The translations under genes were made by a program, and so were the position numbers. The notes beneath the pieces are model-generated. The model searched no databases. It was not told where the DNA came from and worked only from the letters and a program-made list of their open reading frames with translations. Of a stretch of 32,000 nucleotides of DNA, positions 669-17,949 are shown piece after piece. The stretch comes from Coprobacillaceae bacterium (GTDB taxonomy: Bacteria; Bacillota_I; Bacilli_A; Erysipelotrichales; Coprobacillaceae): the NCBI GenBank assembly GCA_963675515.1, contig OY776328.1, forward strand, positions 1,290,001-1,322,000. Reading direction: 5' to 3'. The first letter of the stretch is position 1; every line of letters starts with the position of its first letter.

Positions 669-3090
669 GTGTGAAGCTAGGTGAAGTCGGCTGAACAATA
701 CCTAAGTGATATATCATATGGTAAAGGATAGGCCGGGACGCTATAAATTATCTATGGTGAGAATGTCCGTGTAAGGACTGACGAAACTGCGAATGTACGG
801 GTCTAGAAAGTCGTGCTATTGAAAGGTGGCATGTTGCGTGCGCAACGATGAATATCGAAAAGTAAGAATCGTTGATATGAAATTCGAGATACTCGACAAT
901 GAGGGTATAATTCATCAGGCTCATAGCAGGAACCTAAGGATAAATGTAAAGCTAGAATATTTGGAACGTTGTAAGCGAGAAACGTCTATTAAACGACTGT
1001 TATCGGGACGGTAACTATAAGTGTAAACGAAGTGTTTTTATTCTCGTGAAAGTAGGGGCACAGTACCGATGAAGCCACGAAAAATGGTGGAGGGATAGCC
1101 CCAAGTCTGGTTCTTTAAAAATCAGTTACAGTTAAATGAAGCTCACAGGGTCTGATAAGATGATGGGAAACAATTGTTCTAAACGAAAGGAATAATCCAT
1201 CGGTGAGCACGGGATTACGAAACAACGAATATTACAGTATGCAGGAAACTTTTGACTGGTTGTATCAAATGAGTTTAAACAATGATACTTACGGGATAGA
1301 TCTTTATAATCTGGTGATATCCAGGAACAATATACTCCTCGCCTATCGAAACATCAAAAGCAACACCGGAAGTCACACTAAAGGCACTGACGGCCTTACT
1401 ATTGATGATTACAAGATAGAAAACGTTGAGAAATTTATTCAGGATATTAGACTATCGCTATTGGACTATAAACCAAAAACGGTAAGAAGAGTAGAAATAC
1501 CTAAACCTAATGGAAAATTACGACCATTGGGAATACCAACGATGCATGACAGACTGATTCAACAGATGTTCAAACAGATACTTGAACCAATCTGCGAAGC
1601 GAAGTTTCATAAGCATTCATATGGATTTAGAGCCAATCGCTCAACCCATAATGCTTTGTCAAGATGTTGCCATATCGCCAATATGACGCACAATCACTAT
1701 GTTGTTGATTTGGATATCGAATCGTTCTTTGACAATGTCAATCATACCAAGTTAATCAAACAACTTTGGAATATCGGCATCAAGGATAATCAGGTACTGA
1801 CGATTATAAGTAGAATGCTGAAAGCTCCCATCAAAGGAGTAGGTGTCCCACACTGTGGGACACCACAGGGCAGGAGTGCTTTCGCCATTACTTTCAAACG
1901 TAGTGTTGAACGATCTGGACTGGTGGATAAGCAATCAATGGGAAACATTCAATGCTGATTATAAATGTCCATATAAGTATAGAGTACTCAAGAAAACCAA
2001 TCTAAAAGAAATGTATGCGGTAAGGTATGCCGATGACGCACGAGTCTTCACTTGCAGTTATAAAAATGCGGTAAGGATATATCATGCGGTCAAGGAATAT
2101 CTGAAGAATGAACTTAAACTTAATGTTTCACCTGAAAAGTCAAAGATTACCAATCTAAGGAAACGTAGGTCGGACTATTTGGGGTTTGAAATGAAGCTGG
2201 TACCAAAGCGCAAGAAGTACGTTGCGAATACCTTTGTATCGGCGAAAAGTAAAATAAAAATCAAAGCGGAAATAAGGAAAAGAGTTATCGAGATACAGCG
2301 TCATACAATTTCCAAGAATATCCACAATTATAATTCATATATACTGGGGATAAGAAATTATTATGAAGCTGCAACACATGTAAATATAGATTTTAGAAAT
2401 GTTTACCATCAGACGCTCAAGACCTTGTACAACCGATTGAAACCAATAGCTAAATATGAAGTACCCAGGAGTCCCCCACCGTTGTATAAGAAGTTATTTA
2501 AGAATAACTATCGCACATTCACGATTGGAGCCATTTCATTGTTTCCACTGGCGGATACGCAGTGGAAATTGAAGACAAACTTCAATCAAAACATATGCAA
2601 CTATACCCAAGAGGGGCGCAAATTAGTTTATAAACGATTAGAAAATAATGTAACCTCAGTTATGAAGAGGTTGCTGGAACTGCCAATTGGAAACGGAAGT
2701 GTGGAATATCGGGATAACACAATCTCAAAGTATTCAATGCAAAAAGGGCGTTGTGGAATCACCCAGTTGTTTCTAACGGCCGAGGAAATACACTGTCATC
2801 ACATTGTTTCCGTTGGAGATGGTGGAACCGATAATTTTGACAATCTAATCATTATTCACAAAGAAGTACATAAACTAATACACGGTAATAATCAGGAAAC
2901 TGAAAAAACGCTATTGAAAAAGTTCAATCTAAACAAAACACAGCTTAAAAAACTGAACATGTTGCGTAAGAGATGTAATTTAACTGAAATAAATTAAAGA
3001 AGAATTAGATGGAACGCCGTGTGCGGTGAAAGTCGCATGCACGGTGTGGAGCGGGGGAAAAGATGGAGATAACATCAAAGTCTTACCTAT
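669..3090 (+). mobile_element. group II intron (boundaries approximate)
   Basis: 5' GTGTG at 669-673, about 530 nt before the intron ORF. Domain V helix at 3016-3045 (GCCGTGTGCGGT-GAAA-GTCGCATGCACGGT, GNRA loop, 2-nt bulge). A domain VI-like hairpin GGAGA...TCT[TA]CC has a bulged A, and the element ends ...CCTAT near 3090. The RT/maturase/HNH ORF sits in the domain IV position. Confidence 0.8.
1203..2997 (+). pseudogene. group II intron reverse transcriptase/maturase with C-terminal HNH endonuclease, frameshifted
   Basis: RT motifs RPLGIPTMHDRLIQQ, FRANRSTHNAL and YADD. The conserved GTPQG-GVLSPLLSNVVLNDLD block is split between ORF 1203-1958 and ORF 1843-2997. Removing the single A at 1872 restores one frame. 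The HNH-like tail reads HCHHIV..GGTDNFDNLIIIHKEVHKLIH. Confidence 0.85.
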
Positions 3091-3092
3091 CG

Positions 3093-3260
3093 CTATAGCA
3101 CATGAATTGCGAAAAAACAAATTCCCAGCCCGATTATGGCCATCAGTATTTTTTCACTGATTTCCCCGGCAAATCTTATGCCAAGGTAAAGCAGGAACCC
3201 GCCGTATCCTACCACAATCAGGGTGATGAGAATCGGTGCGATAATTTTCTTTAGTTTCAT
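3093..3260 (-). CDS. small two-TM membrane protein, 55 aa (below the ORF-track cutoff)
   Basis: Hand translation gives MKLKKIIAPILITLIVVGYGGFLLYLGIRFAGEISEKILMAIIGLGICFFAIHVL. CCGGAGG ribosome-binding site lies 7 nt before the ATG at 3260. Confidence 0.45.
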   Translation of the reverse strand: MKLKKIIAPILITLIVVGYGGFLLYLGIRFAGEISEKILMAIIGLGICFFAIHVL

Positions 3261-4797: not shown

Positions 4798-7354
4798 TCA
4801 TTGACGGGTCTTTGGCTTTTCATGGTGTGAGTAGAATATCTTTTTTACCACCTCTATTGTGAGTGCGTATGTGCAGGTAATTGCGATAAGGGCAATAAAC
4901 ACCCAAATTGGCAGTTGAACGAATCCCATCAAAGGACTCAGGGGTGTGTAAATCAGAATTAGAGATGTCAAAGCCGTGGCCACCGAAAGGTACAGCAGCT
5001 TTGTTCCTGGTTTGCTTTTGAAAAAAGCATACCTTGTCCTTACTACCAAGGCAACTGCCAATTCGGTAAGCAACGACTCGATGAACCAGGCGGATTGGAA
5101 CTGCGCCTGGGATGCTCGAAGGACAAACACCAAAAAACCGAAAGTTGCAAAGTCAAACACTGAACTGACCAGACCGAATACGATCATGAAATCACGGATA
5201 AACCTGATGTCCCAATGATGGGGTGTTGTGATCTGGTTGTCATCGACATTGTCGCCAGGTATTCCGATTGCCGGAATGTCGGACATGAAATTGTTCAGAA
5301 GAATCTGTTTGGCTGACAGGGGTAGAAATGGCAAAAACATCGAGGCGCCGGCCATCGAAAGCATGTTGCCAAAATTGGCACTCGTGGTCGTGAAGATGTA
5401 TTTGAGGGTGTTCGCAAACGTCCTGCGTCCTTCGAGAATGCCGGAGATGATCAGATTCAGGTCCTGAGAGACCAGGACGAAATCCGCTGCTTCCTTGGCC
5501 ACGTCCACAGCCTGGTCGACGGATATTCCCACGTCCGCACCGTGAAGAGCGGGCGCATCATTTATGCCATCGCCCATGTATCCGACCACATGGCCCTTTT
5601 TTTTCAAGGCAAGAATGATCCTCTCCTTCTGGGCTGGGTCGACCTGTGCGAACACGGTCATCTTTTCGGCGTTGTACATCAGGGCCTCCTCGCTCATCTC
5701 CTTGATTTGATCGGCGGTAATCACTCCGCTTATTGGCAGCCCAATGGAATCGGCAAGATGGGCGGCCACAAGATGATTGTCGCCGGTTATTATTTTGGTT
5801 GTCACCCCGAGATTGCCAAGTGACCTGATCGTTTTTGCCACATCATCCTTGGGGGGATCGAAAAAAAGCAGGAAGCCCCGGAAGGTCATTTCACACTCGT
5901 CTATTGAAACGTCATATTGCTCCTTTTTTTCAACTTGCTTTGTGGCCAGCCCCAGCACGCGGTAACCCTGGTTGGACCAGTTTTTAAAGAGCTGTTCGAT
6001 TTTTCCAAGGTGGTCAAGGTCTAAGGGAATTGCCTGGTTCATGCTTTGAAAGCTGCTGCAAACAGCCAGGATCTTTTCGAGGGCCCCTTTTGAAATCATT
6101 AATGGTGCGACGACGCTACCGGGATTTGAATCGATTACTACGCTAAGCCGCTTGCGCTGGAAATCGTATGGAATTTCGGCTAGTTTGTCCAGTCCGGCGA
6201 TATCCCGGGTCTTATTTGCCAGGATGGCCTGGTCGAGTGGGTTCTCGATTCCAGTCTGGAAAGAAGCGTTGAGATAGGCCAAACGCATCACCTCATTGTC
6301 AGGGTTTCCAGCAACATCAAGTGCTCCGTCGAGTTTTACAACTCCCTTGGTTATCGTTCCGGTCTTGTCGGTGCAAAGGATATCCATGCTTCCCAGGTTT
6401 TCAATGGCGCTTAGTTTCTTGACCACAACCCCAGCCTGGGCCATTTTCTGGGCTCCTTTGGACAGGGTGATCGTGATAATGGCAAGAAGCAGTTCGGGAG
6501 CGACCCCAACAGCCAAAGCGATGGCAAAAAGCAGTGAATCGATCGGTGGGTGATGCAGTGAAAGGTTGATCACCAAGACGGCCAGAATCAAGACTGTGCT
6601 GATGCGAACAAGCAGGACTCCAAATTTCCTGATGCCCCGCTCGAACTCCGTCTCCATGGGACGTTGGCGCAAATGAAGGGCAATCCTGCCGAATTCGCTT
6701 GATGTCCCAGTCGCGACAATGACGACTTTGGCGGTTCCGGACCGGACGTTTGTCCCCATATAGGTTACATTCGTCCGGTCGCTTAGTCCGCTGTTGCTCG
6801 CAACATTGCCGGCTTTTTTTCCACCGGAAATGATTCACCGGTCAAAATGGCCTGGTTGACAAAGAAATCCTGGGATTCGATAAAGACGCCATCGCCTGGG
6901 ATCATGCTGCCGGCATTGAGCGCGATTATATCGCCTGGAACGATATCGGTTGCCGGTATCGAGGTAAACCGGCCATCACGCAACACATTTACCTTGATTA
7001 CGAGCCGTGACTGCATTTTGTGACCGCTTTGCCGGCACGATATTCCTGAAAGAAGCTTAAAAGGACGCTGCCGATGGCAATGGTTACCACGATTATCGTA
7101 TCCATATATTCGCTACCAAAAAATGATATCACCGCCGCAAAAAGCAAAATCAAAATCAGCGGGCTGGTGAATTGTCTTGCCAGGGATTTGATGATGCTCA
7201 TTTGATGATGTTCTTTGATCCGGTTGGGGCCGAACTTTACCAAGCGTGCCTGGGTTTGCGTGGCGGTCAGGCCTAATGGCGAGCTGGCGAGCTCCTTCAA
7301 TATTTCCTTGGCGTCCATGCTCCAATAGTTTTTCAAATTTTCACTTCGATTCAT
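4798..7354 (-). pseudogene. mgtA: Mg2+-importing P-type ATPase (MgtA-like), broken into three ORFs by two frameshifts
   Basis: Collinear pieces are 7354-6998 (N-terminus, GLTATQTQARLVKFGPN), 7016-6783 (actuator, TGES) and 6759-4798 (DKTGT, MGDGINDAPAL, C-terminal NFGN...LPFLP...WD..FI like MgtA). The frame breaks sit at the T4 run 7016-7019 and the T7 run 6814-6820. GGAGGAG ribosome-binding site lies before the ATG at 7354. Confidence 0.85.
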
Positions 7355-7660
7355 GACAAACTCCTCCATCATGGTTGGCTGTTGGTGCAAATGATATTTA
7401 ATGGCTGCCACAAGTGTTGGTGCTCATAGAAGGCATTGGACAATCGACTTGATCTATCAAGTAAATTATACTCCAAAACAATAATGATATGGATAAAAAT
7501 TTAAATCCAAATATAATTCCATGGTTAAACGCGAACTCCAGAATTTTTGATACGAATCATTGGAGCAGACGGATACTTTAGGTGTACAATTGTAGAAAGG
7601 GCGGGGCGTTAAAGTTTCCACCAACGTTTGCAGCAAAGCGGGCTCCGCCATGGGGACTCA

Positions 7661-9952: not shown

Positions 9953-10100
9953 AGAAATTCCTCCGTTTGGACGATTTATCTTCTAAGTTAATAGTAGCAC
10001 TTTTTTTGATGTTACTCAATTTTTTCCTTTAATCAGTCATGATGATATCGATATTGTTAAGCTTCAGTTCCCTGACCGTCACAAAAATAAGCCACATAGC

Positions 10101-10129
10101 TTGACAGTATCGGCTTGAATTCTTAAAAT
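10101..10129 (+). promoter_or_regulatory. near-consensus sigma-A promoter
   Basis: TTGACA (10101-10106), 17-nt spacer, TAAAAT (10124-10129). It lies about 75 nt upstream of the ATG at 10203. Confidence 0.5.
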
Positions 10130-10202
10130 CATTTCATGATAGGAAATGCCTTGGTAGACCATTTGACTTTTGGGGGCTGCCAAAAGAAGGAGGAACTCGA
10201 AA

Positions 10203-10702
10203 ATGAAAATCGCTGTTATCGCAGCTGCTCACAAAGCCGGCAGATTGATTGTAAAAGAATAATTGGAACGCGGCCATGAAGTGACCACCATTGTCAAGGA
10301 TGCAAAGAAGCTGACACAGACCGGAATCGATGTAGTTGTCAAGGATATTTTCGACCTTGAAATGGATGACCTGAAGGATTATGACGTTGTTGTCAATGCT
10401 TTCAATGCACCCGCCGGCCAGAAGAAGGGCATGTCATAGCGCCCCGGGTTCTTACCGATGCCTTGGCTGAATTGTCGAAGATAGAAAATATGGACTGGAC
10501 CGATATCTCACTGGCTATATTTTTTGATCCAAGCGGCATCAGGATAGGAAAATATACATTGTCTAATGACAATGTGATCACCAATTCCAGTGGCCAAATC
10601 TATGTGAGCTATCCGGATTTTGTGGTGGCACTGGTGGATGAGATTGAAAATGGCAATCATATCAAAGAAAGATTTACTGTTTTTTCTCAAAACCAGGCTT
10701 GA
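10203..10702 (+). pseudogene. NAD(P)H-binding (NmrA/YwnB-like atypical SDR) gene, degraded
   Basis: The protein starts MKIAVIAAAHKAGRLIVKE, so the GxxGxxG motif is eroded, and hits an in-frame TAA at 10260-10262. It continues LERGHEVTTIVKDAKKL..., reaches a second stop near 10437, and shifts frame into ORF 10463-10702 (DWTDISLAIFFDPSGIRIGKYTL...FVVALVDEIENGNHIKERFTV). The central GGAGSL region appears deleted. Confidence 0.75.
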
Positions 10703-10953
10703 AGTCGCAGTATAATGATAATGGAATAAGAAAATACCGGTAGTGGGTATGATTGCAGGTCCATATGGGATAGTGGCTCTTTCTGGTTGGGTGGGATTGA
10801 TGGTGTACATATCCGAAGTCTGATGGACGATATTTAAGGACGCGGCGGCGAAGCAGTTTGCTTGACATTTTTGGATGGATGTTTATCATTAGGGTATCAA
10901 AAATCATGTATCAGGGGCGTTGATTCGAATACATTAGTTGCAGGAGGTGGCAT

Positions 10954-11235
10954 ATGGGATATCCATATATTTTCAATATCACAATCGAGCAGGACAAGTA
11001 TCGCAGTGACGATGAGATGATCGGTGATGATAGCAGTGTGATTGGACGGGTTCTTTTTGGGGAGCGGATTGTCATGAAAAATGGTGATTCGCTGTACACA
11101 TACGATGTCGAATCCAAAAAAGAAGTTTTTGAAAAGCTTAAGTTTGGAAAAACGAGAATTGCCGGGTTGGATGATTACATGATCGCGGATAGTGCGACCG
11201 TCTACCGGATCAAAAAAGATGATACGTGTTGCTAA
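10954..11235 (+). CDS. hypothetical protein, 93 aa
   Basis: Strong ribosome-binding site GCAGGAGGTGG 5 nt before the ATG, and a terminator directly downstream. No family recognised. Confidence 0.55.
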   Translation: MGYPYIFNITIEQDKYRSDDEMIGDDSSVIGRVLFGERIVMKNGDSLYTYDVESKKEVFEKLKFGKTRIAGLDDYMIADSATVYRIKKDDTCC

Positions 11236-11262
11236 AGTCGGATGATAGGTCCGGCTTTTTTG
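11236..11262 (+). terminator. rho-independent terminator
   Basis: Stem AGTCGGA/TCCGGCT (one G-U pair) followed by a T6 run. Confidence 0.55.
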
Positions 11263-11289
11263 TTTCCATGATTTTCAGGTTTCCCAGTT

Positions 11290-12370
11290 CGTTTTCCCGC
11301 GTAGCTAAGCGGACCTGGTTTTGGAATGAATGGAAAATGCTTTTATTATGTATCTTGATTGTCCTGGGTTTGTCAGAGTGACCAATAGAAAAGTCACCCC
11401 TTTTTCAGGTGGTGACAGTGTCGCATCGCAATTCAGATCGCACATCCAGTATGACTTCCAGGGACTCGATGAACTCTTTTTTGAGATCCAGCGATCCGTT
11501 TTTAATGCACCTCATGCATTCATGCAGCTAGCCATTTTATTTGATGCAGTAGTCTATAGTAGCTGGTGGAGGTATTATATGGATAAAAAAGAACAAGAAT
11601 TTGTTGCATTGATGCGTCACCTCATCATCCATGACATCATTACTGGAAATTCTGGATATCCTATTATTTCCTTAGTTCCATCTAGAGTCACGCCTATGGC
11701 GATATGAACCGCCTCTTTAGACACGGTATCGCGCCGCAAAGGAATAACTGTAGCGTCGGTATAAACAACTGCGTATTGCATGTTTAACGGGCGATTTTTA
11801 AAGGCTTCAACATGGGCAACTATTTCCTTGGTGATATTGGAAACTGTCTGTCTGGAGTATTTCTTGCCGTAGATTGATTCAACAGTTTTGACAATATCGC
11901 TGTTGGCCATCCCTGAATTAAATAGATCGATGACAGTGTTGGTGGTAGCTAGATCGTTTCGTTGATATTTAGGAACCAGCGGAGAATCAAAATCACCCTG
12001 ACGGTCACGTGGTATGCGCAGGTTCAACACACCAAATTTAGTGTTGTAATCACGGGTGTAATAGCCATTTCTTGAATTAGAATTATTAGATCGGTCATAT
12101 TTCTCATAATCAAGAAAAACTGTAAGTTCAGACTTCAAAATATCGTTAATGGCATTCTCCAATTCGCTCCGGAAAAGTTCTGAGACCACTTGTTCAAAAG
12201 CAGGTAGATTATTATCATTAGATATTAGACTTCTAAGTAAGGTTGTTGTAAAATAGTTCATGGGTGTAATCCTCTCGTAAATTGTTTTTTGTCGAACTAA
12301 TTTTACAAGGGTTGCATCCTTTTTTATACTTAAAAGTTGAAATCCTATTTACACAAAATATTTTACACTA
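11290..12370 (-). mobile_element. IS256-family insertion sequence remnant (ends approximate)
   Basis: The transposase N-terminal 214 aa are intact (11617-12261). An IS256-like terminal sequence ...TGTGTAAAT... lies near 12340-12370. Downstream, 11290-11617 holds only scattered out-of-frame echoes of the C-terminal half (LHQI, DLKKEFIESLEVI, NKSIF) in far too little DNA for a full gene. Confidence 0.65.
11617..12261 (-). pseudogene. IS256-family (Mutator-type) transposase, truncated after about 214 aa
   Basis: SELTVFLDYEKYDRS.NSRNGYYTRDYNTKFGVLNLRIPRDRQGDFDSPLVPKYQR...YAVVYTDATVIPLRRD matches the N-terminal half of IS256 transposases as I recall them. Full-length proteins are about 400 aa. 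Confidence 0.8.
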
Positions 12371-12606
12371 TTATCGTAAATAATCCGGGTAAAGAACGAG
12401 TGATGTATGCCGTTCACTCGAAAATCTTGCAAGTGCTCAAGACGAAATTTTTACATCGGCCAAATTATTTTACAATTTTAATCATATTTATGGTTTCATG
12501 ACTAGAATGAAGATGAAAGCTGACAACCCTTTTCGAATAGTGATTTGGCAAATGAAATCAGACATGTTTAGCACATGTCGAAAAATATGGTTTGGGAGGA
12601 ATATTT

Positions 12607-12702
12607 ATGGTCTGGGAAATTACAAAAATTGCAGTTATATTATTTTTCGCGATTATATTTGTCATTGACATTTTGGTGGTTATGTCAAAAAGGGGCGGAT
12701 AG
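12607..12702 (+). CDS. candidate 31-aa hydrophobic peptide (type I toxin-like)
   Basis: Hand translation gives MVWEITKIAVILFFAIIFVIDILVVMSKRGG. GGGAGGA ribosome-binding site lies 7 nt upstream. It is a single TM helix with a basic tail and is below the ORF-track cutoff. Confidence 0.35.
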   Translation: MVWEITKIAVILFFAIIFVIDILVVMSKRGG

Positions 12703-12901
12703 TCATAAAATTTAAAATGAAATGAACCCACCAATGACTCTTTGTTATAATCACACAGTGGGCTACAGTATATGTAAATTCAAATGAAAATCAATATGGC
12801 GATAAATGCTGATTTAGACTTTATGGATGCCATCACAATTCATTGATGTTCGAGGTGCAAGCAATTGATGTCTGGCATTTTTGCGCTTGCATCCAATCCA
12901 A

Positions 12902-13006
12902 TTAATCGCCTGCGTCTTGGTACTCGTTACTTTCAACCGCATTGTTATCGTAATATGTCAATTCCTTTTCAAATGTGATTACGATCATGATTTCATCTTC
13001 GCTCAT
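12902..13006 (-). CDS. candidate 34-aa acidic peptide
   Basis: Hand translation gives MSEDEIMIVITFEKELTYYDNNAVESNEYQDAGD. AAAGGGGA ribosome-binding site lies 6 nt upstream of the ATG at 13006. There is no other support. Confidence 0.25.
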   Translation of the reverse strand: MSEDEIMIVITFEKELTYYDNNAVESNEYQDAGD

Positions 13007-13122
13007 AATTTGTCCCCTTTCAATTTGCCTAAAATCATCAAGTATAGAAAGTTAATGAATTTCCATTTTGCGCATATAATTGGATAATGTCATAAACATT
13101 TTTCATTCAAATTAAATTACTC

Positions 13123-13494
13123 TTGGTAAAATGTTACCACTTTTCGTGGAAATCACAACGAAAACGAATGATTCACGGGGTTGGGTTGACACAATACTTT
13201 CAGGTGGTGTTTATATCGCTGGGCCACACACGGGGGCTCCAAAACACTTATTGCAACGAATATGAGCGAAATATGTGGCTACAGGAGTCTTATGGAAAAG
13301 TGTCGGAACTGTTAGAATTCATAGAATTCAGATTAAGTATAAATATTACCAATGAACTACTAGAACAGCATTACCAAGTTTTGAAATATCAGAGAAAGAT
13401 ATCTGATGAGATTGCGGGTTCAAATGAAAGGCTAGGGATGTATTTGGAGATTGAGCGACTGAAAGAGCTTGAAAACATAGTCGAAAAAAGCTAA
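13123..13494 (+). CDS. hypothetical protein (true start uncertain, possibly ATG at 13273)
   Basis: Open frame in the AT-rich island. The C-terminal half looks helical or coiled. No convincing ribosome-binding site and no family recognised. Confidence 0.35.
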   Translation: MVKCYHFSWKSQRKRMIHGVGLTQYFQVVFISLGHTRGLQNTYCNEYERNMWLQESYGKVSELLEFIEFRLSINITNELLEQHYQVLKYQRKISDEIAGSNERLGMYLEIERLKELENIVEKS

Positions 13495-13617
13495 AACTAT
13501 TTTCTAGGAAAAATCCTTTGAAACCGTTGCTGGATAAGGTGTTCTGGGTTTTGAACTGAGGCAATATAATATTAGGGTTATTTTGCATGGATTATTGACA
13601 AAATTGGGGGTAAAAAA

Positions 13618-14118
13618 GTGATAATTACAATAAATACGATTCATATCCTTAGAGCGGAAGTACAAATGTATCAAGGAGTGCTCGAGGCGGCTACTGAGTT
13701 AATATCAAAAAAGATAGAGGAATATGAATCGAGGTCGGCCAAAATAGAGTCAATCCACGATAAATTGTACAATAAGGTTAGAAATGCAAATTACGGGATT
13801 GACTATTCTGGTATGATTACTGTTGAATTAGATTATAAATATCTTTCATTGATTGAAGAGCAGCTGATATTGGAGAATGATCTACGGAGAAAGTATTTAA
13901 ACGGCTTCGATATCGTGAACGAATTTAATCATGACTATCTTAAAGAACTTGATTATTGGTGTACCAGGATTGAAACGGTGGAATATTATTTGATTATGTT
14001 GGATAAAATTATTTTGAGTTTATTGCACATCCGGGCGATATATATAGGAAAAGTAAGCATATACTTAATAGACTGGTATGAAAGAGGTGTGTTTGTCAAT
14101 GATGGATGCACCAATTAG
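13618..14118 (+). CDS. hypothetical protein, 166 aa
   Basis: GTG start preceded by TGGGGGT. The sequence is AT-rich and K/E/Y/I-rich. No family recognised. Confidence 0.45.
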   Translation: MIITINTIHILRAEVQMYQGVLEAATELISKKIEEYESRSAKIESIHDKLYNKVRNANYGIDYSGMITVELDYKYLSLIEEQLILENDLRRKYLNGFDIVNEFNHDYLKELDYWCTRIETVEYYLIMLDKIILSLLHIRAIYIGKVSIYLIDWYERGVFVNDGCTN

Positions 14119-14178
14119 TGCGTTTATCGTTGACAAACAAGGAATAGCATAGTAATATTATCGTACAAGGAGGGGACT

Positions 14179-14484
14179 ATGAGCACTCATTATAATCAAC
14201 AATATTCTAGATCGGAGATTGAAGAGTTACTCGAAACAATCAAAGATTATGTACGCAACGATAAGCATTCTATGGCGTTGAATGAAAATAGGGAAGAAAA
14301 CAGGGGTTTTGTGAATGACTATAATGTTAATCGTCGAAAATTAAAAGAGATTTTGTTATGCATTGTAGTTGAAGATTTTTGTCATTCTCTAAATAATGTT
14401 AATAGAGGATTTGAACATGAGATCTTATATGTCTTTGTGCCAAAAGTGGATTTATTAACTGGTCGAGAACACTCGCGACTTTAG
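14179..14484 (+). pseudogene. MqsR-like toxin gene, 5' fragment (native sequence to about 14458, then read-through into the IS left end)
   Basis: Strong ribosome-binding site AAGGAGGGG. The EDFCHSLNN...HEILYVFVPKV pattern resembles MqsR (SDFYKSMTT...WQDVYRPRL). The ORF ends in the IS hairpin region. Confidence 0.5.
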
Positions 14485-14624
14485 TCGTGGAGATGAATCG
14501 ACTTTTTTGTGACTCTTTTCAACTGTGTTCTATTGGCTACATATATTGTTAAAATTATGGACTAAAAGTGCTTTAAAGCTGTAATTTTTTGCAACCATAT
14601 GTTAAAATGTATATGAGGTGATAA

Positions 14625-15053
14625 ATGATGGCTGATATTAATTACGGACGTGGTTATGTCTATTCGATTCAATACCATCTGGTCTGGTGTGTGAAATACC
14701 GTCACGATATTTTGACTGGTCAAGTTGACGATGATGTCAAGAAATTGTTGACTAAGATTGCAGCTGATAATGACATAAATATCGTTGAAATGGAATCGGA
14801 TAAGGACCATATCCACTTGCTTATCGATTGCAAGCCCCAACACCATATTCCCAGTATGGTAAAAGCGTTCAAAGGGTTATCTGCAAGATTCCTGTTCAAG
14901 CAACATCCTGAGCTTAAAAGTCGTCTATGGAAAGGTCATTTGTGGAATCCCAGCTATTTCGTAGCCACTGTTAGTGATAATACTCAACAGCAGATAATAG
15001 ATTATATAAAAAGTCAGAAGAAGAAATTAGGTGATGATGTTGTTGCACCATAA
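14625..15053 (+). CDS. tnpA: IS200/IS605 family Y1 (HUH) transposase TnpA
   Basis: YHLVWCVKYR, HUH motif HIHLLI, WNPSYFVATV and a C-terminal catalytic-Tyr region IIDYIKSQ. GAGGTG ribosome-binding site. 142 aa. Confidence 0.9.
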   Translation: MMADINYGRGYVYSIQYHLVWCVKYRHDILTGQVDDDVKKLLTKIAADNDINIVEMESDKDHIHLLIDCKPQHHIPSMVKAFKGLSARFLFKQHPELKSRLWKGHLWNPSYFVATVSDNTQQQIIDYIKSQKKKLGDDVVAP

Positions 15054-16179
15054 GGCATACAAGTTCAGGATCTACCCTGATAGTGAACAGGTAATACTGA
15101 TCTGTAAAACGATCGGATGTGCCCGATTTGTCTACAATCATTTCCTTAATCTGTGGAATGAGGCGTATGTCAATTCCGGTAAAGGTCTGTCTTACAATTC
15201 CTGCTCAGCCATGCTTCCGCAAATGAAACGGGATGATAATACGGAATGGCTAAAGGAAGTAGACAGCATCGCCCTCCAATCATCGGTGAAGAATCTTTCC
15301 GATTCTTTCGCGAGGTTCTTTAAAAAGCAAAACAGCCACCCGCGATACAAGAGCAAGAAGAATCCGGTTCAAAGCTACACTACAAAGAATGTGAACAACA
15401 GTATCGCTGTAATCGGCAAGTCGATCAAGTTGCCTAAGTTAGGTCTGGTAAGGTTCGCCAAGAGTCGGGAGATCAAGGGAAGGATAATTAAGGCGACAAT
15501 CCGGAAAAATCCCAGTGGCAAATACTTTGTTGCAATTGTTGTTGAAGAAAAGATCGAACAATTGCCCAAAGCGAATTCGATTATCGGTATTGACCTTGGC
15601 ATCCGTGACTTCGCGACATTTTCAAATGGCAGAAAAGTCGCAAATCATAAGTTCACTGGCAAGATGGAAAAGAAACTAATCTGCGAACAGAAAAAGCTGT
15701 CAAGACGGGCACGCCTAGCCAAAAGCAAAGGAATCAATCTTCTTGAAGCAAGAAACTACCAGAAACAAAGACGCAAAGTGGCATTGCTCCATGAAAAGGT
15801 AATGAACCAACGCAATGACTTTTTGAACAAGTTGACAACCCAGATCATCAAAAACCACGATGTAATCTGCATAGAAGACTTGAACACATTAGGAATGTTG
15901 CGTAATCATAGACTGGCTAAAAGCATATCCGATGTTTCCTGGTCGGCATTTGTGGCTAAGCTTATCTACAAGGCTGAATGGTATGGCAGAGAAATCATCA
16001 AGGTGGACCGCTGGTATGAGTCCAGCCAGATATGCAATAAATGTGGCCACAAGGATTGCAAGAAACCACTCCACATCAGGGAATGGACTTGTCCTAATTG
16101 TGGCAGTACCAATGACCGAGACATAAATGCAAGCAAGAACATCCTGAAAGAAGGACTGCGCATAATAGCATCAACATAA
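15031..16179 (+). CDS. tnpB: TnpB (IS605 OrfB) RNA-guided endonuclease; start may be ATG 15034 or 15037
   Basis: N-terminal AYKFRIYP..EQ. RuvC-like acidic residues sit in IGIDLGIRDF, ICIEDLN and NDRDINASKNI. Zn finger CNKCGH...CPNCG. The 5' end overlaps the tnpA 3' end. Confidence 0.9.
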   Translation: MMMLLHHKAYKFRIYPDSEQVILICKTIGCARFVYNHFLNLWNEAYVNSGKGLSYNSCSAMLPQMKRDDNTEWLKEVDSIALQSSVKNLSDSFARFFKKQNSHPRYKSKKNPVQSYTTKNVNNSIAVIGKSIKLPKLGLVRFAKSREIKGRIIKATIRKNPSGKYFVAIVVEEKIEQLPKANSIIGIDLGIRDFATFSNGRKVANHKFTGKMEKKLICEQKKLSRRARLAKSKGINLLEARNYQKQRRKVALLHEKVMNQRNDFLNKLTTQIIKNHDVICIEDLNTLGMLRNHRLAKSISDVSWSAFVAKLIYKAEWYGREIIKVDRWYESSQICNKCGHKDCKKPLHIREWTCPNCGSTNDRDINASKNILKEGLRIIAST

Positions 16180-16311
16180 ACAACTACTTAACTGTAGGGA
16201 CTACGGGGATAGCTTGGTAAAGAAGAGAAACCGCTGATTATGGTGGATGCACCATAATCAAGTAAGCTCTGTTCCCAAGAATCCCGTGACTTTCAGTCAT
16301 GGGAGGTTCAA
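16140..16311 (+). ncRNA. predicted omega RNA (reRNA) scaffold of TnpB (5' boundary is a guess)
   Basis: By analogy with characterised IS200/IS605 TnpB loci, the RNA spans the tnpB 3' end to the right end. A perfect 10-bp hairpin GATTATGGTG-GATG-CACCATAATC lies at 16236-16259 and a 9-bp hairpin at 16283-16303. Confidence 0.4.
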
Positions 16312-16439
16312 ACAATATTGATGGAGAAAAAGAGGAGGTGGAAATATATATTAAATTCAACATTTTGAATGATCGGGATAAAGTAGTGGTAATTTCTTTT
16401 CATAAATTAAACAGACCGATAGATTATTTGTTTGTGTAG
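16312..16439 (+). pseudogene. MqsR-like toxin gene, 3' fragment
   Basis: Hand translation gives NNIDGEKEEEVEIYIKFNILNDRDKVVVISFHKLNRPIDYLFV*. Compare the MqsR C-terminus GQVYLKITVIHDVLIVSFKEK. Confidence 0.5.
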
Positions 16440-16464
16440 TAAGTTGAAAAGTGGGGAAAAGAAA

Positions 16465-17501
16465 ATGAAAATGAAAATTGAAAATTTAAATGAAAATGAA
16501 AATGTAAATGAAGAAGAAAAAGTATTTTGTTATGAATGTAGAGATGATGTAAGTTATAATTTGCAAAGTATAAATCTTATTGGCAAATTAAAAGGTATTA
16601 AATATGAGTATGTCGGAAAAGTAGCTTATTGCGATGAATGTGGTCTTGAAGTATATATACCAGATGTTGAAGATTTTAATTTAAAAGCGCTTTATGATGT
16701 TTATCGTGAGGCAAACGATATTATATCTTTAGAAAAAATCAAAGAAATACCCAGTAAATATGATATTGGAAAGAGACCATTGTCATTGCTATTAAATTGG
16801 GGAGAAAATACTTTCAGCCGATTTGTCAATGGGGATATGCCATCAAAGCATATTCTGATGTGCTGAAAAAAATATATGAAAGTCCAGAATATTTCAAAGA
16901 AATTTTGGAAACTGGCAAATCTAATTTAAAATCCGAATTGTCATATGAAAGGAGTATAAAAAAAGTTAACAGTTTGCTAAATTCAAAAGTTTTACAAAGT
17001 AGTAAAATTGATGAAGTTATAGAATATATTTTGTACAAATGTGAAGATACAACACATTTGGCACTTCAAAAAATTTTGTACTATGTTCAGGGCTTTAATT
17101 ATGCTTTTTATGAAAAATTTTGTTTCGAAGATGAATGTGAAGCCTGGGTACATGGTCCTGTCTTTAGGAATGTTTATAGTAAATATTCTTCTTCTGGATA
17201 TGATTCTATTGAATCACCAAAGGAACTTTGTTTTATAACGCTCACTTCAATAGAAGTGGCAATTTTGGACAGTGTTATTAAAAATTTTGCATGTTATAGT
17301 GGTAAAACTTTGGAGAGTTTTACACATTCTGAAGAGCCTTGGATCGTAACTAGAGGAGATTTGCCGATGGGAATGCCATCTGATAAAGTTATTGAAAAAG
17401 AATTGATTGCTAAGTATTTTAAAGAAGTTAAGAATAAGTATGAAATGTTAAAACCTTCGGATATAAAAAAATATTCATCTTCTTTATTTGATGAAATTTG
17501 A
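16465..17501 (+). pseudogene. MqsA-like Zn-ribbon/HTH antitoxin fused to a Panacea (DUF4065, SocA/GepA-like) domain, frameshifted
   Basis: Zn ribbon CYEC...CDEC followed by LSLLLNWGENTFSRFVNGDMPSK (HTH). The frame breaks near 16846-16850, and ORF 16797-17501 continues AYSDVLKKIYESPEYFKEIL, which parallels MqsA STIKLLRVLDKHPELLNEI. The Panacea core follows: LALQKILYYVQGFNYAFYEK.....EAWVHGPVF..VY. Confidence 0.7.
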
Positions 17502-17670
17502 AATAGTATTTTGAATGACCACATGGCTCAGGTTGAGAATTTTAGTAGTGAAATGTCGAAATTTGGCCGCTTAATAATCCAACAAATTTCAGCATTTCAG
17601 AACAGTTATCGCATTTTCGCAAACCAATAGAATTGCTGCCTGTGTTTTATGGTCATTCAAAAATAGTATT

Positions 17671-17713
17671 GACTTACTTTTGATTTACATTTTAGAAAGT
17701 AAGTCTTTTTTTT
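17671..17713 (+). terminator. rho-independent terminator of the TA locus
   Basis: Perfect 10-bp stem GACTTACTTT (17671-17680) / AAAGTAAGTC (17696-17705) followed by a T8 run (17706-17713). Confidence 0.7.
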
Positions 17714-17949
17714 CCTTTCATTAATTGTTTAATGCATTATATAAACAATTTTAAAAAGAATGCTGTATTAAGCATGGTGTTAAAGTGATAATATTTAAAT
17801 GTGAAGCAAACGAAAATATTTTTAATAGAGTCATTGTTTACTATGTACATAGTATTAATCAAGTTGATTGCTTGTGACCATTTTGGTGACCGTTAGAAAT
17901 GCATATCTACAAAACACTTAGTAAACACCTACACAATTTTGTGTTAAAA

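Follow-up and report, generated by a model that had tools for sequence, protein, structure and literature searches.

We analysed a stretch of 32,000 nucleotides (the window) from an Erysipelotrichaceae chromosome, in which an AT-rich, strain-specific island carries a two-gene cassette interrupted by mobile DNA. Upstream of the first gene is a promoter-like site that agrees with 10 of the 12 consensus positions and is the top match in 13900-17800; its -35 box is overlapped by the right arm (14130-14139) of an inverted repeat, which might serve as an operator. The locus is best explained, with good confidence, by an intact IS200/IS605 element that splits and inactivates an MqsR-like toxin gene belonging to a toxin-antitoxin pair of phage type. 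Its features are as follows:

14090..14139 (+): perfect 10-bp inverted repeat, candidate operator, seen in the sequence (arms TGTTTGTCAA, 14090-14099, and TTGACAAACA, 14130-14139)
14130..14158 (+): promoter-like TTGACA-17-TAATAT, 21 nt 5' of the toxin start (pattern match)
14179..14455 (+): 5' part of the putative toxin gene, codons 1-92 and one base of codon 93 (the T of TAC, Tyr); family HMM positions 1-94
14451..14455 (+): TTTAT, site of insertion and of left cleavage, also predicted as the TAM of TnpB (three sibling insertions)
14456..16311 (+, the orientation of the toxin gene): complete IS200/IS605-family element, 1856 nt (sibling similarity)
14456..14484 (+): end of the truncated ORF contributed by the IS, reading ...L-TGREHSRL-stop (translation)
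14472..14492 (+): left-end subterminal imperfect hairpin, CTCGCGAC-TTTA-GTCGTGGAG (DNA fold)
14625..15053 (+): tnpA, Y1 HUH transposase, 142 aa (Pfam Y1_Tnp, NF033573)
15037..16179 (+): tnpB, RNA-guided endonuclease, 380 aa (NCBIfam NF038281, IS200_TnpB)
16180..16311 (+): right end, also the predicted scaffold of the omega-RNA, with a hairpin at 16283-16303, GAAT before it and TCAA at 16308-16311
16312..16439 (+): 3' part of the putative toxin gene, from the second base of codon 93 through codon 134 and the stop; family HMM positions 94-135
16465..17501 (+): antitoxin gene, Zn-ribbon-HTH (MqsA-like) plus Panacea (TIGR03830, PF13274)

An initial annotation had described the first gene as one of toxin type split by an insertion sequence, and examination of the reading frames bears this out. 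The ORF at 14179-14484 (101 aa) ends in a TAG stop (14482-14484) that lies inside the loop of the left-end hairpin in the DNA fold, an open frame extends without stops from the right end of the element to the TAG at 16437-16439, and the join first proposed (280 + 128 nt) is indeed in frame. An in-frame join would arise by luck alone in one case out of three. With a hidden Markov model derived from 119 full-length homologs, the left fragment was aligned to positions 1-94 (134.9 bits, E = 3.5e-43) and the right fragment to positions 94-135 (53 bits, E = 6e-18); as these matches abut exactly at position 94 of one family model, the splitting of a single gene is established far beyond chance. Both halves are otherwise free of stops and frameshifts in the HMM match, and removal of the element in silico gives a complete protein belonging to a conserved family whose members are ~136 residues long. 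Of the 101 residues of the truncated product, 92 are native and the other 9 are encoded by the element.

The break between native and element sequence had been placed near 14458; its neighborhood is correct but the exact site lies 3 nt further left, at 14455|14456. When 30 in-frame joins were scored with the family HMM, 14455|16312 came out on top (193.6 bits) and yields 134 aa, so that the restored ORF has 134 rather than 135 codons and its junction reads ...VDLYNIDGE... instead of ...VDLLNNIDGE...; the peptide reported downstream of the element also contained one surplus glutamate, the actual sequence being GEKEEVEI. The boundaries as first drawn, with an element at 14459-16311 lying 3' of TTAA and an excision product of 135 codons, appear quite unlikely. 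That join (14458|16312) is in frame and still reaches 187.9 bits, and TA(A/T) might conceivably be part of a longer target preference of 8 nt (TTTATTAW), but the join scores 5.7 bits lower, requires a one-residue insertion that is absent in 119 of the 119 homologs, and puts a leucine where the homologs show F (94), Y (12), M (3), T (3), H (2) or N (1), a column into which the tyrosine of our join fits; moreover, an 8-nt target would be atypical for the IS200/IS605 family, whose targets are 4-5 nt (IS608 TTAC, ISGst2 TTTAT). Our left boundary draws on three or four insertion sites together with this 5.7-bit difference, and we infer the exact cut within TTTATTAW from the HMM scoring. The search for an uninterrupted allele in relatives that had been suggested did recover homologs, but none closer than 60% identity in the collections searched, and the exact pre-insertion sequence given here is a reconstruction.

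The element has a GC content of 41%, against 29% for the cassette, and encodes both proteins typical of its family. TnpA matches Y1_Tnp (PF01797, E = 1.1e-41) and NF033573 (E = 1e-43; score 148.5 bits, cut-off 55), with the HIH motif and C-terminal tyrosine visible in its translation, and TnpB covers positions 1-360 of the 360 of NF038281 (score 545.9 bits, cut-off 425), the form of TnpB on record having 380 aa. A repeat search recovered no inverted repeat between the two ends of the element; instead both bear subterminal hairpins. Before the left hairpin stands AACA, which by analogy to GL/CL of IS608 (PMC5934647) occupies the place of the left guide sequence, and the right end folds as DNA with a z-score of -2.6. 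The RNA fold of 16100-16335 (z -3.4) is better than all 200 shuffles, and from this fold the omega-RNA is predicted; no Rfam family matched the ends of the element.

Sibling copies, 89-91% identical with similarity spanning 14451-16311, define the termini. In three independent sibling insertions the right end is fixed at 16311 (...GGTTCAA) and the right flanks differ from the first base beyond it, which confirms the terminus ...TTCAA of the initial annotation. On the left, TTTAT-TA(A/T)-CTGGTCGAG is common to the window, to L004 and L009 and to two contig starts (L006/L007), with differing sequence upstream; the target, previously read as TTA(A), is instead TTTAT, common to the three independent sibling insertions. 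TTTAT occurs once on the + strand of the restored gene, and the flanks of the three independent insertions lack a direct repeat, that is, there is no target-site duplication. The exact left-end pattern gave a single match in the genome contigs, at the site of L001-L005, and none in the metagenome contigs, the exact right-end pattern gave none in the genome contigs, and a pattern scan for the empty site of a sibling insertion found nothing. Within the window we found no further copies of the element; our analysis suggests that the same genome carries about six further copies of tnpA.

In phage and plasmid collections megablast recovered only one relative, on an Enterococcus faecium plasmid; at 72% DNA identity this is the nearest annotated relative found. 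Two well-studied systems, IS608 of Helicobacter pylori and ISGst2 of Geobacillus stearothermophilus, share with it the combination of Y1 TnpA and TnpB, the subterminal hairpins and the lack of target duplication. At the right end, IS608 has the same pair of guide and cleavage sequences (GR GAAT, CR TCAA) as the window element, whereas its target is TTAC rather than TTTAT (PMC5934647); in ISGst2, TTTAT is both TAM and target (bioRxiv 10.1101/2023.03.14.532601), the TAM being identical to the target of the window element.

The gene downstream of the split one encodes a probable MqsA-like protein: it matches TIGR03830 over positions 1-126 of 127 (E = 5.6e-17; 61.7 bits against a cut-off of 61.8) and scores 23.8 bits with PF15731 (cut-off 30), and two CxxC pairs are visible in its sequence. 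Its frame is broken by an apparent 1-nt deletion near 16850-16853 into the ORFs 16465-16866 and 16797-17501, the frame change falling at residue 115 of the intact homologs (332-334 aa) used as tblastn queries. After repair of the frame the protein also matches SocA_Panacea (PF13274, E = 2.4e-17; 64.3 bits against a cut-off of 25.7). The toxin-first order and the Zn-ribbon/HTH protein downstream, both recognized earlier, are supported, the latter by the TIGR03830 (MqsA family) match, but the assignment to plain mqsRA is not: the C-terminal Panacea/SocA domain is an addition, which makes the module an MqsR:PanA pair of the PanAT type already described (PMC8832971, PMC10440598).

The same gene pair is conserved elsewhere. 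Toxin homologs adjoin an antitoxin with MqsA-like and Panacea parts, ~332 aa in length, in four further loci (L010, L012, L013 and L014), and the cassette also occurs on 50 plasmids of the Bacillus cereus group (including L018 and L019), on whose megaplasmids toxin homologs 41-46% identical adjoin a SocA/Panacea antitoxin. Within the PanAT systems (Kurata et al. 2022, PMC8832971), experiments have validated MqsR:PanA pairs whose antitoxin is of the ZBD-HTH-Panacea type, in Bacillus fungorum and in Lactobacillus rossiae (MqsR(D2):PanA; Ernits et al. 2023, PMC10440598). Like the window cassette as we read it, these have the toxin gene first, an MqsR-like toxin with its catalytic tyrosine near residue 100, an antitoxin with Zn-binding domain, HTH and C-terminal Panacea in that order (349 aa in B. 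fungorum against about 345 aa in the window after frame repair), Firmicutes hosts and a mobile-element context. The window cassette differs in its interrupted toxin gene, in the broken frame of its antitoxin and in a toxin family that falls below the Pfam MqsR_toxin cut-off; the comparison with the B. fungorum toxin (WP_099686063.1) is by description only.

The rejoined protein has 601 homologs, mostly of 136 aa, which cover 99% of it; homologs are 52-60% identical. The family comprises about 670 representative clusters, ranges from Clostridia prophages to Bacillus megaplasmids and is annotated as 'hypothetical'; a tblastn search against phages gave no match. The likeness to MqsR claimed for the restored protein stands as a remote kinship, though the Pfam cut-off was missed and structural searches did not return MqsR. 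A profile of 92 family sequences aligned by hhalign with a profile of 43 MqsR sequences with a probability of 93.3% (E = 2.6e-7) over 89 columns that cover MqsR residues 10-98; the probability is 70% when the E. coli MqsR sequence by itself is the counterpart and 28% when the close-family profile alone is compared with the MqsR profile. MqsR_toxin (PF15723) was matched by 35 of the 92 members at E <= 0.1 (best E = 3.5e-6) and other families by at most 2, whereas the gathering cut-off of 26.2 bits was reached neither by the 134-aa protein (17.6 bits, E = 0.005) nor by the 135-aa version (14.5 bits). The motifs DF..S, IY.K and ISF(H/K) align between the two families, so that the DF segment and the C-terminal strand motif singled out by the initial annotation do line up with MqsR in the profile alignment. 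Tyr105, which all of 72 close homologs share and at least 90% of the 92 diverse ones retain, aligns with the catalytic Tyr81 that is essential in MqsR (PMC9636575); the catalytic Lys56 of MqsR is replaced by His69 (in the motif DFCHS) in the window toxin, a position that is not conserved in the wider family. The AF2 model of a 60% identical homolog (P0002; pLDDT 90) shows the order beta-alpha-beta-alpha-alpha-beta4+, and MqsR, whose fold we take as RelE-like alpha/beta with a six-stranded sheet and three helices, has been described with a matching order of elements (PMC2791442). Foldseek with this confident model gave no match in the PDB at E <= 0.001 and no MqsR among the 50 matches listed, and HMM searches of the PDB sequences with the family profiles missed MqsR. 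From these sequence profiles, the family is supported as a remote relative of MqsR.

Several other names surfaced in these searches. The weak top Foldseek matches in the PDB include NTF2-like and CaMKII-hub chains, and the one significant match in BFVD is named 'HTH-type transcriptional regulator'. One homolog bears the NCBI name 'PBECR3 domain-containing', a family absent from the Pfam scans, and weak matches to Dsr2, Tad5 and phiKZ_gp29PR were dismissed as noise.

The E. coli MqsR/MqsA system (PDB: 3HI2; PMC2791442, PMC9636575) shares with the window the toxin-first operon and, probably, an antitoxin with Zn-ribbon and HTH, and its toxin is homologous to the window toxin at the profile level over residues 10-98, with ~17-21% identity to the family in the profile alignments. 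The Tyr81 equivalent and the C-terminal (I/V)SF(K/H) strand are kept. In contrast, the window toxin exceeds MqsR by ~36 residues, being extended at the N-terminus and bearing an additional beta4/beta5 hairpin, Lys56 is replaced by His69 and the C-terminal Lys96 by a near-invariant histidine, and the antitoxin has a Panacea domain that MqsA lacks. More speculatively, and with low probability, the family might form its own Tyr/His-type branch among the MqsR-like RNases, one that Pfam and genome annotation currently miss.

It could be argued that the gene is truly split but encodes a phage protein of another function with a few MqsR-like motifs, such as a non-catalytic partner of a Panacea protein. 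The lack of a Pfam match above cut-off, of a RelE/MqsR match by Foldseek in the PDB and of a conserved Lys56 would agree with this, as would the function-unassigned status of PHROG 34059 and the finding that some PanA-associated proteins were non-toxic on testing (PMC8832971). We consider it unlikely in view of the profile-profile probability over nearly the whole length of MqsR, of MqsR_toxin being the only recurrent Pfam match and of the agreeing secondary-structure order; furthermore, the partner bears an MqsA-type Zn-ribbon/HTH, and the same architecture is that of the toxin:antitoxin pair validated in B. fungorum and L. rossiae (PMC10440598).

Entirely possible, if somewhat doubtful, is a reading in which the whole cassette is a decaying remnant with a true frameshift in the antitoxin, neither gene working and the insertion as one of several lesions. 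Besides the apparent 1-nt deletion, its isolation is consistent with this: the prophage genes that flank such cassettes elsewhere are missing (tblastx against prophage loci found only the two genes in common), and a fragment of an IS256-type transposase lies beside it. To the left of 17935, related strains share no similar sequence with the window and therefore lack the cassette. On the other hand, the window also contains a P-type ATPase gene with at least 2 frame changes at 4798-7411 and a split intron RT, which makes assembly indels a live alternative, and the deletion in the antitoxin gene may be such an error. Even if it is real, the N-terminal ORF retains the Zn-ribbon, and in the B. fungorum system the Zn-binding domain alone neutralises the toxin (PMC10440598); the intact frames of the toxin halves also speak against general decay.

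In the explanation that we prefer, an otherwise sound toxin gene disabled by one insertion, the element would have inserted 3' of TTTAT by single-strand 'peel-and-paste', within codon 93 (the Tyr codon TAC) of a gene of 134 codons. Its product would be a putative endoribonuclease toxin, remotely MqsR-like (RelE-fold), encoded first in a two-gene cassette with the probable 'PanA' antitoxin (Zn-ribbon-HTH-Panacea) second, and would be cut between the strands equivalent to beta4 and beta5 of MqsR. The invariant Tyr105, Lys107 and Ser-Phe-His121-123 all lie in the 3' part (16312..16439), and because the 101-aa product lacks them the toxin is, judging from the sequence, almost certainly inactive. 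The split itself, the nature and termini of the element, the assignment of both halves to one family and the conservation of the gene pair are shown by our analysis; RNase toxicity and the guide of TnpB, discussed below, are, like the loss of function, what we infer for this locus.

As the insertion duplicates nothing, precise TnpA-mediated excision would restore the gene exactly, with a joint reading GGATTTAT|ACAATATT. The first ~16-20 nt of 16312..16439 are the predicted guide match (ACAATATTGATGGAGA) under the known TnpB mechanism, and the restored joint, TTTAT followed by ACAATATTGATGG..., would thus be the expected cut site of the element's own TnpB/omega-RNA; through such cutting, stable reversion should be disfavoured. 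One might go further and regard the insertion as a locked-in state, in which the toxin-antitoxin remnant serves as an addiction module for the element instead of simply decaying. We rate this as very unlikely; if true, excision would both recreate the TnpB cut site and revive the toxin beside an antitoxin that may be crippled, making loss of the element doubly lethal.

Both the disruption of toxin genes by insertion sequences and MqsR:PanA modules are already documented, and the present case is a clean but ordinary disabling of a toxin gene by mobile DNA. Its value is mainly for annotation and curation, and it opens no long-standing questions. It provides a well-resolved natural knockout of a toxin gene by an IS200/IS605 element with base-precise ends, and adds a further independent TTTAT-targeting tnpA/tnpB element, from Erysipelotrichaceae. 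It also links a widespread 'hypothetical' family of ~136 aa, paired with ZBD-HTH-Panacea antitoxins, remotely to MqsR.

The gene beginning at position 14179 is interrupted by an IS200/IS605 element, as the initial annotation had proposed: the sequences on both sides of the insertion match a single protein family, and the two halves abut. The locus comprises the following features:

14179-14484: truncated ORF of 101 aa
14472-14492: left subterminal imperfect hairpin, typical of the family
14625-15053: tnpA, Y1 HUH transposase (Pfam Y1_Tnp, 1.1e-41; NCBIfam IS200 transposase, 148.5 bits against a cut-off of 55)
15037-16179: tnpB, overlapping tnpA, TnpB nuclease (NF038281, 545.9 bits against a cut-off of 425, whole model length matched)
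16283-16303: right subterminal imperfect hairpin, typical of the family
up to the TAG at 16437-16439: stop-free frame
16465-17501, + strand: antitoxin gene, about 345 aa after bridging one frame change
16465-16866: first antitoxin ORF, with the Zn-ribbon and part of the HTH
16797-17501: second antitoxin ORF, with the Panacea domain

The rejoined protein has 601 homologs, mostly 136 aa long (99% query coverage, 52-60% identity), chiefly from genomes and metagenomes of Clostridia and Lachnospiraceae. With a family HMM built from 119 of these homologs, against which the fragments were scored separately, the left fragment alone matched positions 1-94 (134.9 bits, E 3.5e-43) and the right fragment alone positions 94-135 (53 bits, E 6e-18), so that the two matches meet at a single position of one family. 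By chance alone, one join in three would be in frame; the homology of both halves is decisive for a split gene. As initially described, the 101-aa ORF ends in a hairpin, its stop codon sitting within the loop of the left one. The element has a G+C content of 41% versus 29% for the interrupted gene pair, and no second copy was found within the window. Its right end folds more stably than every shuffled control (z -3.4) and matched no Rfam model. The 90% tnpA cluster contains seven distinct TnpA sequences, three of 142 aa and four of 134 aa, that appear to come from the source genome and suggest that several related copies of this element are present in it.

Sibling elements, 89-91% identical, were retrieved from metagenome contigs via the tnpA protein cluster. 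In the three cases where the right flank can be read (the window and metagenome loci L004 and L009), the elements lose similarity exactly after GGTTCAA, which ends at window position 16311, and their flanks diverge at once; the terminal TTCAA of the initial annotation is thus shared by all three. On the left, TTTAT-TA(A/T)-CTGGTCGAG is common to the same three and to the first bases of two further contigs (L006 and L007), and the flanks upstream are unrelated, so that the target and the start of the element both fall within the eight bases TTTATTAW. Given the right end at 16311, the frame is preserved by just three left boundaries (…VDY|NIDG, …VDLY|NIDG and …VDLL-N|NIDG). When 30 in-frame joins were scored against the family HMM, 14455|16312 ranked first with 193.6 bits; the originally proposed join, 14458|16312, scored 187.9 bits, requires an extra residue present in 0 of 119 homologs, and places Leu where the homologs show F94/Y12/M3/T3/H2/N1. 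This ranking and the homolog column place the junction 3 nt further left and point to an element of 1856 nt at 14456-16311 with TTTAT, rather than TTA(A), as its probable target. Excision would give 134 codons instead of 135, with codon 93 restored as T|AC (Tyr).

The Geobacillus element ISGst2 has TTTAT as its native target and TAM (bioRxiv 10.1101/2023.03.14.532601). GAAT, which precedes the right hairpin, and TCAA, with which the element ends, are identical to the right guide and cleavage sites of IS608 (PMC5934647), and the four bases at the position equivalent to the IS608 left guide, AACA, would under the IS608 left-end pattern pair better with TTAT than with TTAA. The restored gene contains a single + strand TTTAT, which is the insertion site. 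In a comparison of the element (14456-16311) with 12300-17935, the motif was absent from the element's top strand and occurred six times on its bottom strand. Its density is about 8 per kb in the AT-rich island, compared with 2.2 per kb over the remainder of the window, which argues that AT-rich acquired DNA is a target-rich sink for the element.

The product of the split gene had been described as an MqsR-like toxin. No Pfam domain scores above threshold in the rejoined protein or its close homologs, the best match, MqsR_toxin, falling below the cut-off (17.6 bits, E 0.005; cut-off 26.2), but homology to MqsR is detectable at the profile level. Among 1.84 billion representative proteins, a profile search recovered 670 relatives at E <= 0.001; of 92 diverse full-length members, 35 matched MqsR_toxin at E <= 0.1 (best 3.5e-6), and no other Pfam family was matched by more than two. 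Alignment of the 92-sequence profile with one of 43 bona fide MqsR proteins using hhalign gave a probability of 93.3% (E 2.6e-7; 89 columns, MqsR residues 10-98); the probability was 70% against the single E. coli MqsR sequence (verified against PDB 3HI2) and just 28% with a shallow close-family profile. The MqsR motifs DFYKS, VYLKITVI and LIVSFKEK align with DFCHS, IYIKFNIL and VVISFHKL of the family. Tyr81 of E. coli MqsR, essential for cleavage (PMC9636575), corresponds to the family's invariant Tyr105, whereas the likewise essential Lys56 is replaced by His69 in the split toxin, a residue conserved in the close family only, and Lys96 by a near-invariant His. A confident AlphaFold model of a 60% identical homolog, P0002 (pLDDT 90, pTM 0.85), has three helices, strands in the order reported for MqsR, and an additional hairpin. 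On the basis of the profile comparison, the motifs, Tyr105 and this model, we classify the product as a putative RNase toxin, remotely MqsR-like and of RelE fold, that lies outside Pfam PF15723 as this family is defined.

The downstream gene had been read as a Zn-ribbon/HTH antitoxin. Its N-terminal part does resemble an MqsA-type Zn-ribbon plus HTH (TIGR03830, E 5.6e-17, 61.7 bits; cut-off 61.8), but the protein is of the PanA type, with a C-terminal Panacea/SocA domain (PF13274, 2.4e-17), and its frame is possibly broken. Using intact homologs, tblastn places a frame switch at homolog residue 115, where the window has AAG-CAT-ATT-CTG against K-Q-Y-S; within 16840-16860 it reads AAGCATATT where homologs read K-Q-Y, an apparent 1-nt deletion near 16850-16853. 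The Zn-ribbon would remain encoded by the first ORF, and in the B. fungorum system this domain suffices for neutralisation. Assembly indel errors are a live alternative to a genuine break: in the same window, a P-type cation ATPase gene (4798-7411, - strand) needs at least two frame changes and a group II intron reverse-transcriptase ORF (1203-2997, + strand; Rfam group II intron matches at 569-747 and 3012-3096) is divided into two parts, this region being either pseudogene-rich or affected by such errors. Hence, we do not take the antitoxin frameshift as established. Homologous antitoxin genes are frame-broken beside intact toxins at two other loci, L011 (6451-7446; two shifts) and L012 (2374-3367; GGG to GG), and at L011 two IS91-family transposase genes lie directly downstream.

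Elsewhere the pair recurs in the order toxin, 30-40 bp gap, antitoxin of about 332 aa: in Clostridium magnum and metagenome loci, in prophage DNA between replication and HNH/terminase genes, and on 50 Bacillus cereus-group megaplasmids, where the toxin is annotated as 'hypothetical protein' and its partner as 'SocA domain-containing antitoxin'. One B. cereus-group plasmid (L018) has an IS200/IS605 tnpB gene about 2.3 kb upstream of the pair. The combination of a toxin with a Zn-ribbon-HTH-Panacea antitoxin is already known: the commonest recognised toxin domain beside Panacea antitoxins is MqsR-like (PMC8832971), and the MqsR:PanA pairs of B. fungorum and L. rossiae have been validated, with neutralisation by the Zn-binding domain (PMC10440598).

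In the window the two-gene cassette stands alone, without a prophage, in an AT-rich stretch flanked by rpsD and an IS256-type transposase fragment, the latter at the left edge of the stretch:

11617-12261, - strand: truncated Mutator/IS256-family transposase, 214 aa, profile positions 18-200 of 379

The cluster names of PyrF and PyrE indicate that the host belongs to the Erysipelotrichaceae. Related strains are syntenic with the window from 17935 rightwards only, so the AT-rich island is strain-specific; the sequence left of rpsD (about 10000-17935) is not common to the related Erysipelotrichaceae contigs L015, L016 and L017, and L016 has a group II intron reverse transcriptase at the corresponding place. 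Variable DNA appears to have a hot spot in this intergenic neighbourhood. A perfect 10-bp inverted repeat (14090-14139; TGTTTGTCAA … TTGACAAACA, 30 bp between arms) precedes the toxin gene; its right arm coincides with the -35 box of the best-matching promoter candidate upstream of that gene, and the HTH antitoxin may use the repeat as an operator. The window also holds a cluster conserved in L015-L017:

22441-30341: four-gene Wadjet-like (JetABCD) cluster of DUF2397, DUF2398, a 1336-aa SMC/SbcC-like ATPase and DUF3323-DUF2399

Beyond the demonstrated element and its ends, the gene split, the family of both halves and the conserved cassette, established knowledge of the IS200/IS605 family suggests that the element would have entered as single-stranded DNA, 3' of TTTAT, without target duplication. 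The 101-aa product, which is without the strands bearing Tyr105, Lys107 and Ser-Phe-His, is predicted to be inactive. TnpA could excise the element precisely, and the joint so restored, flanked by TTTAT, would be cut by TnpB/omega-RNA, whose guide would read into ACAATATTGATGG…. The initial observation was thus essentially right, and its interpretation is supported. Element and toxin-antitoxin pair are both of known kinds, and it is no surprise that an insertion sequence disrupts a toxin gene; what is usefully gained is a base-precise example of IS insertion, together with the identification of an MqsR-like family that lacks annotation.
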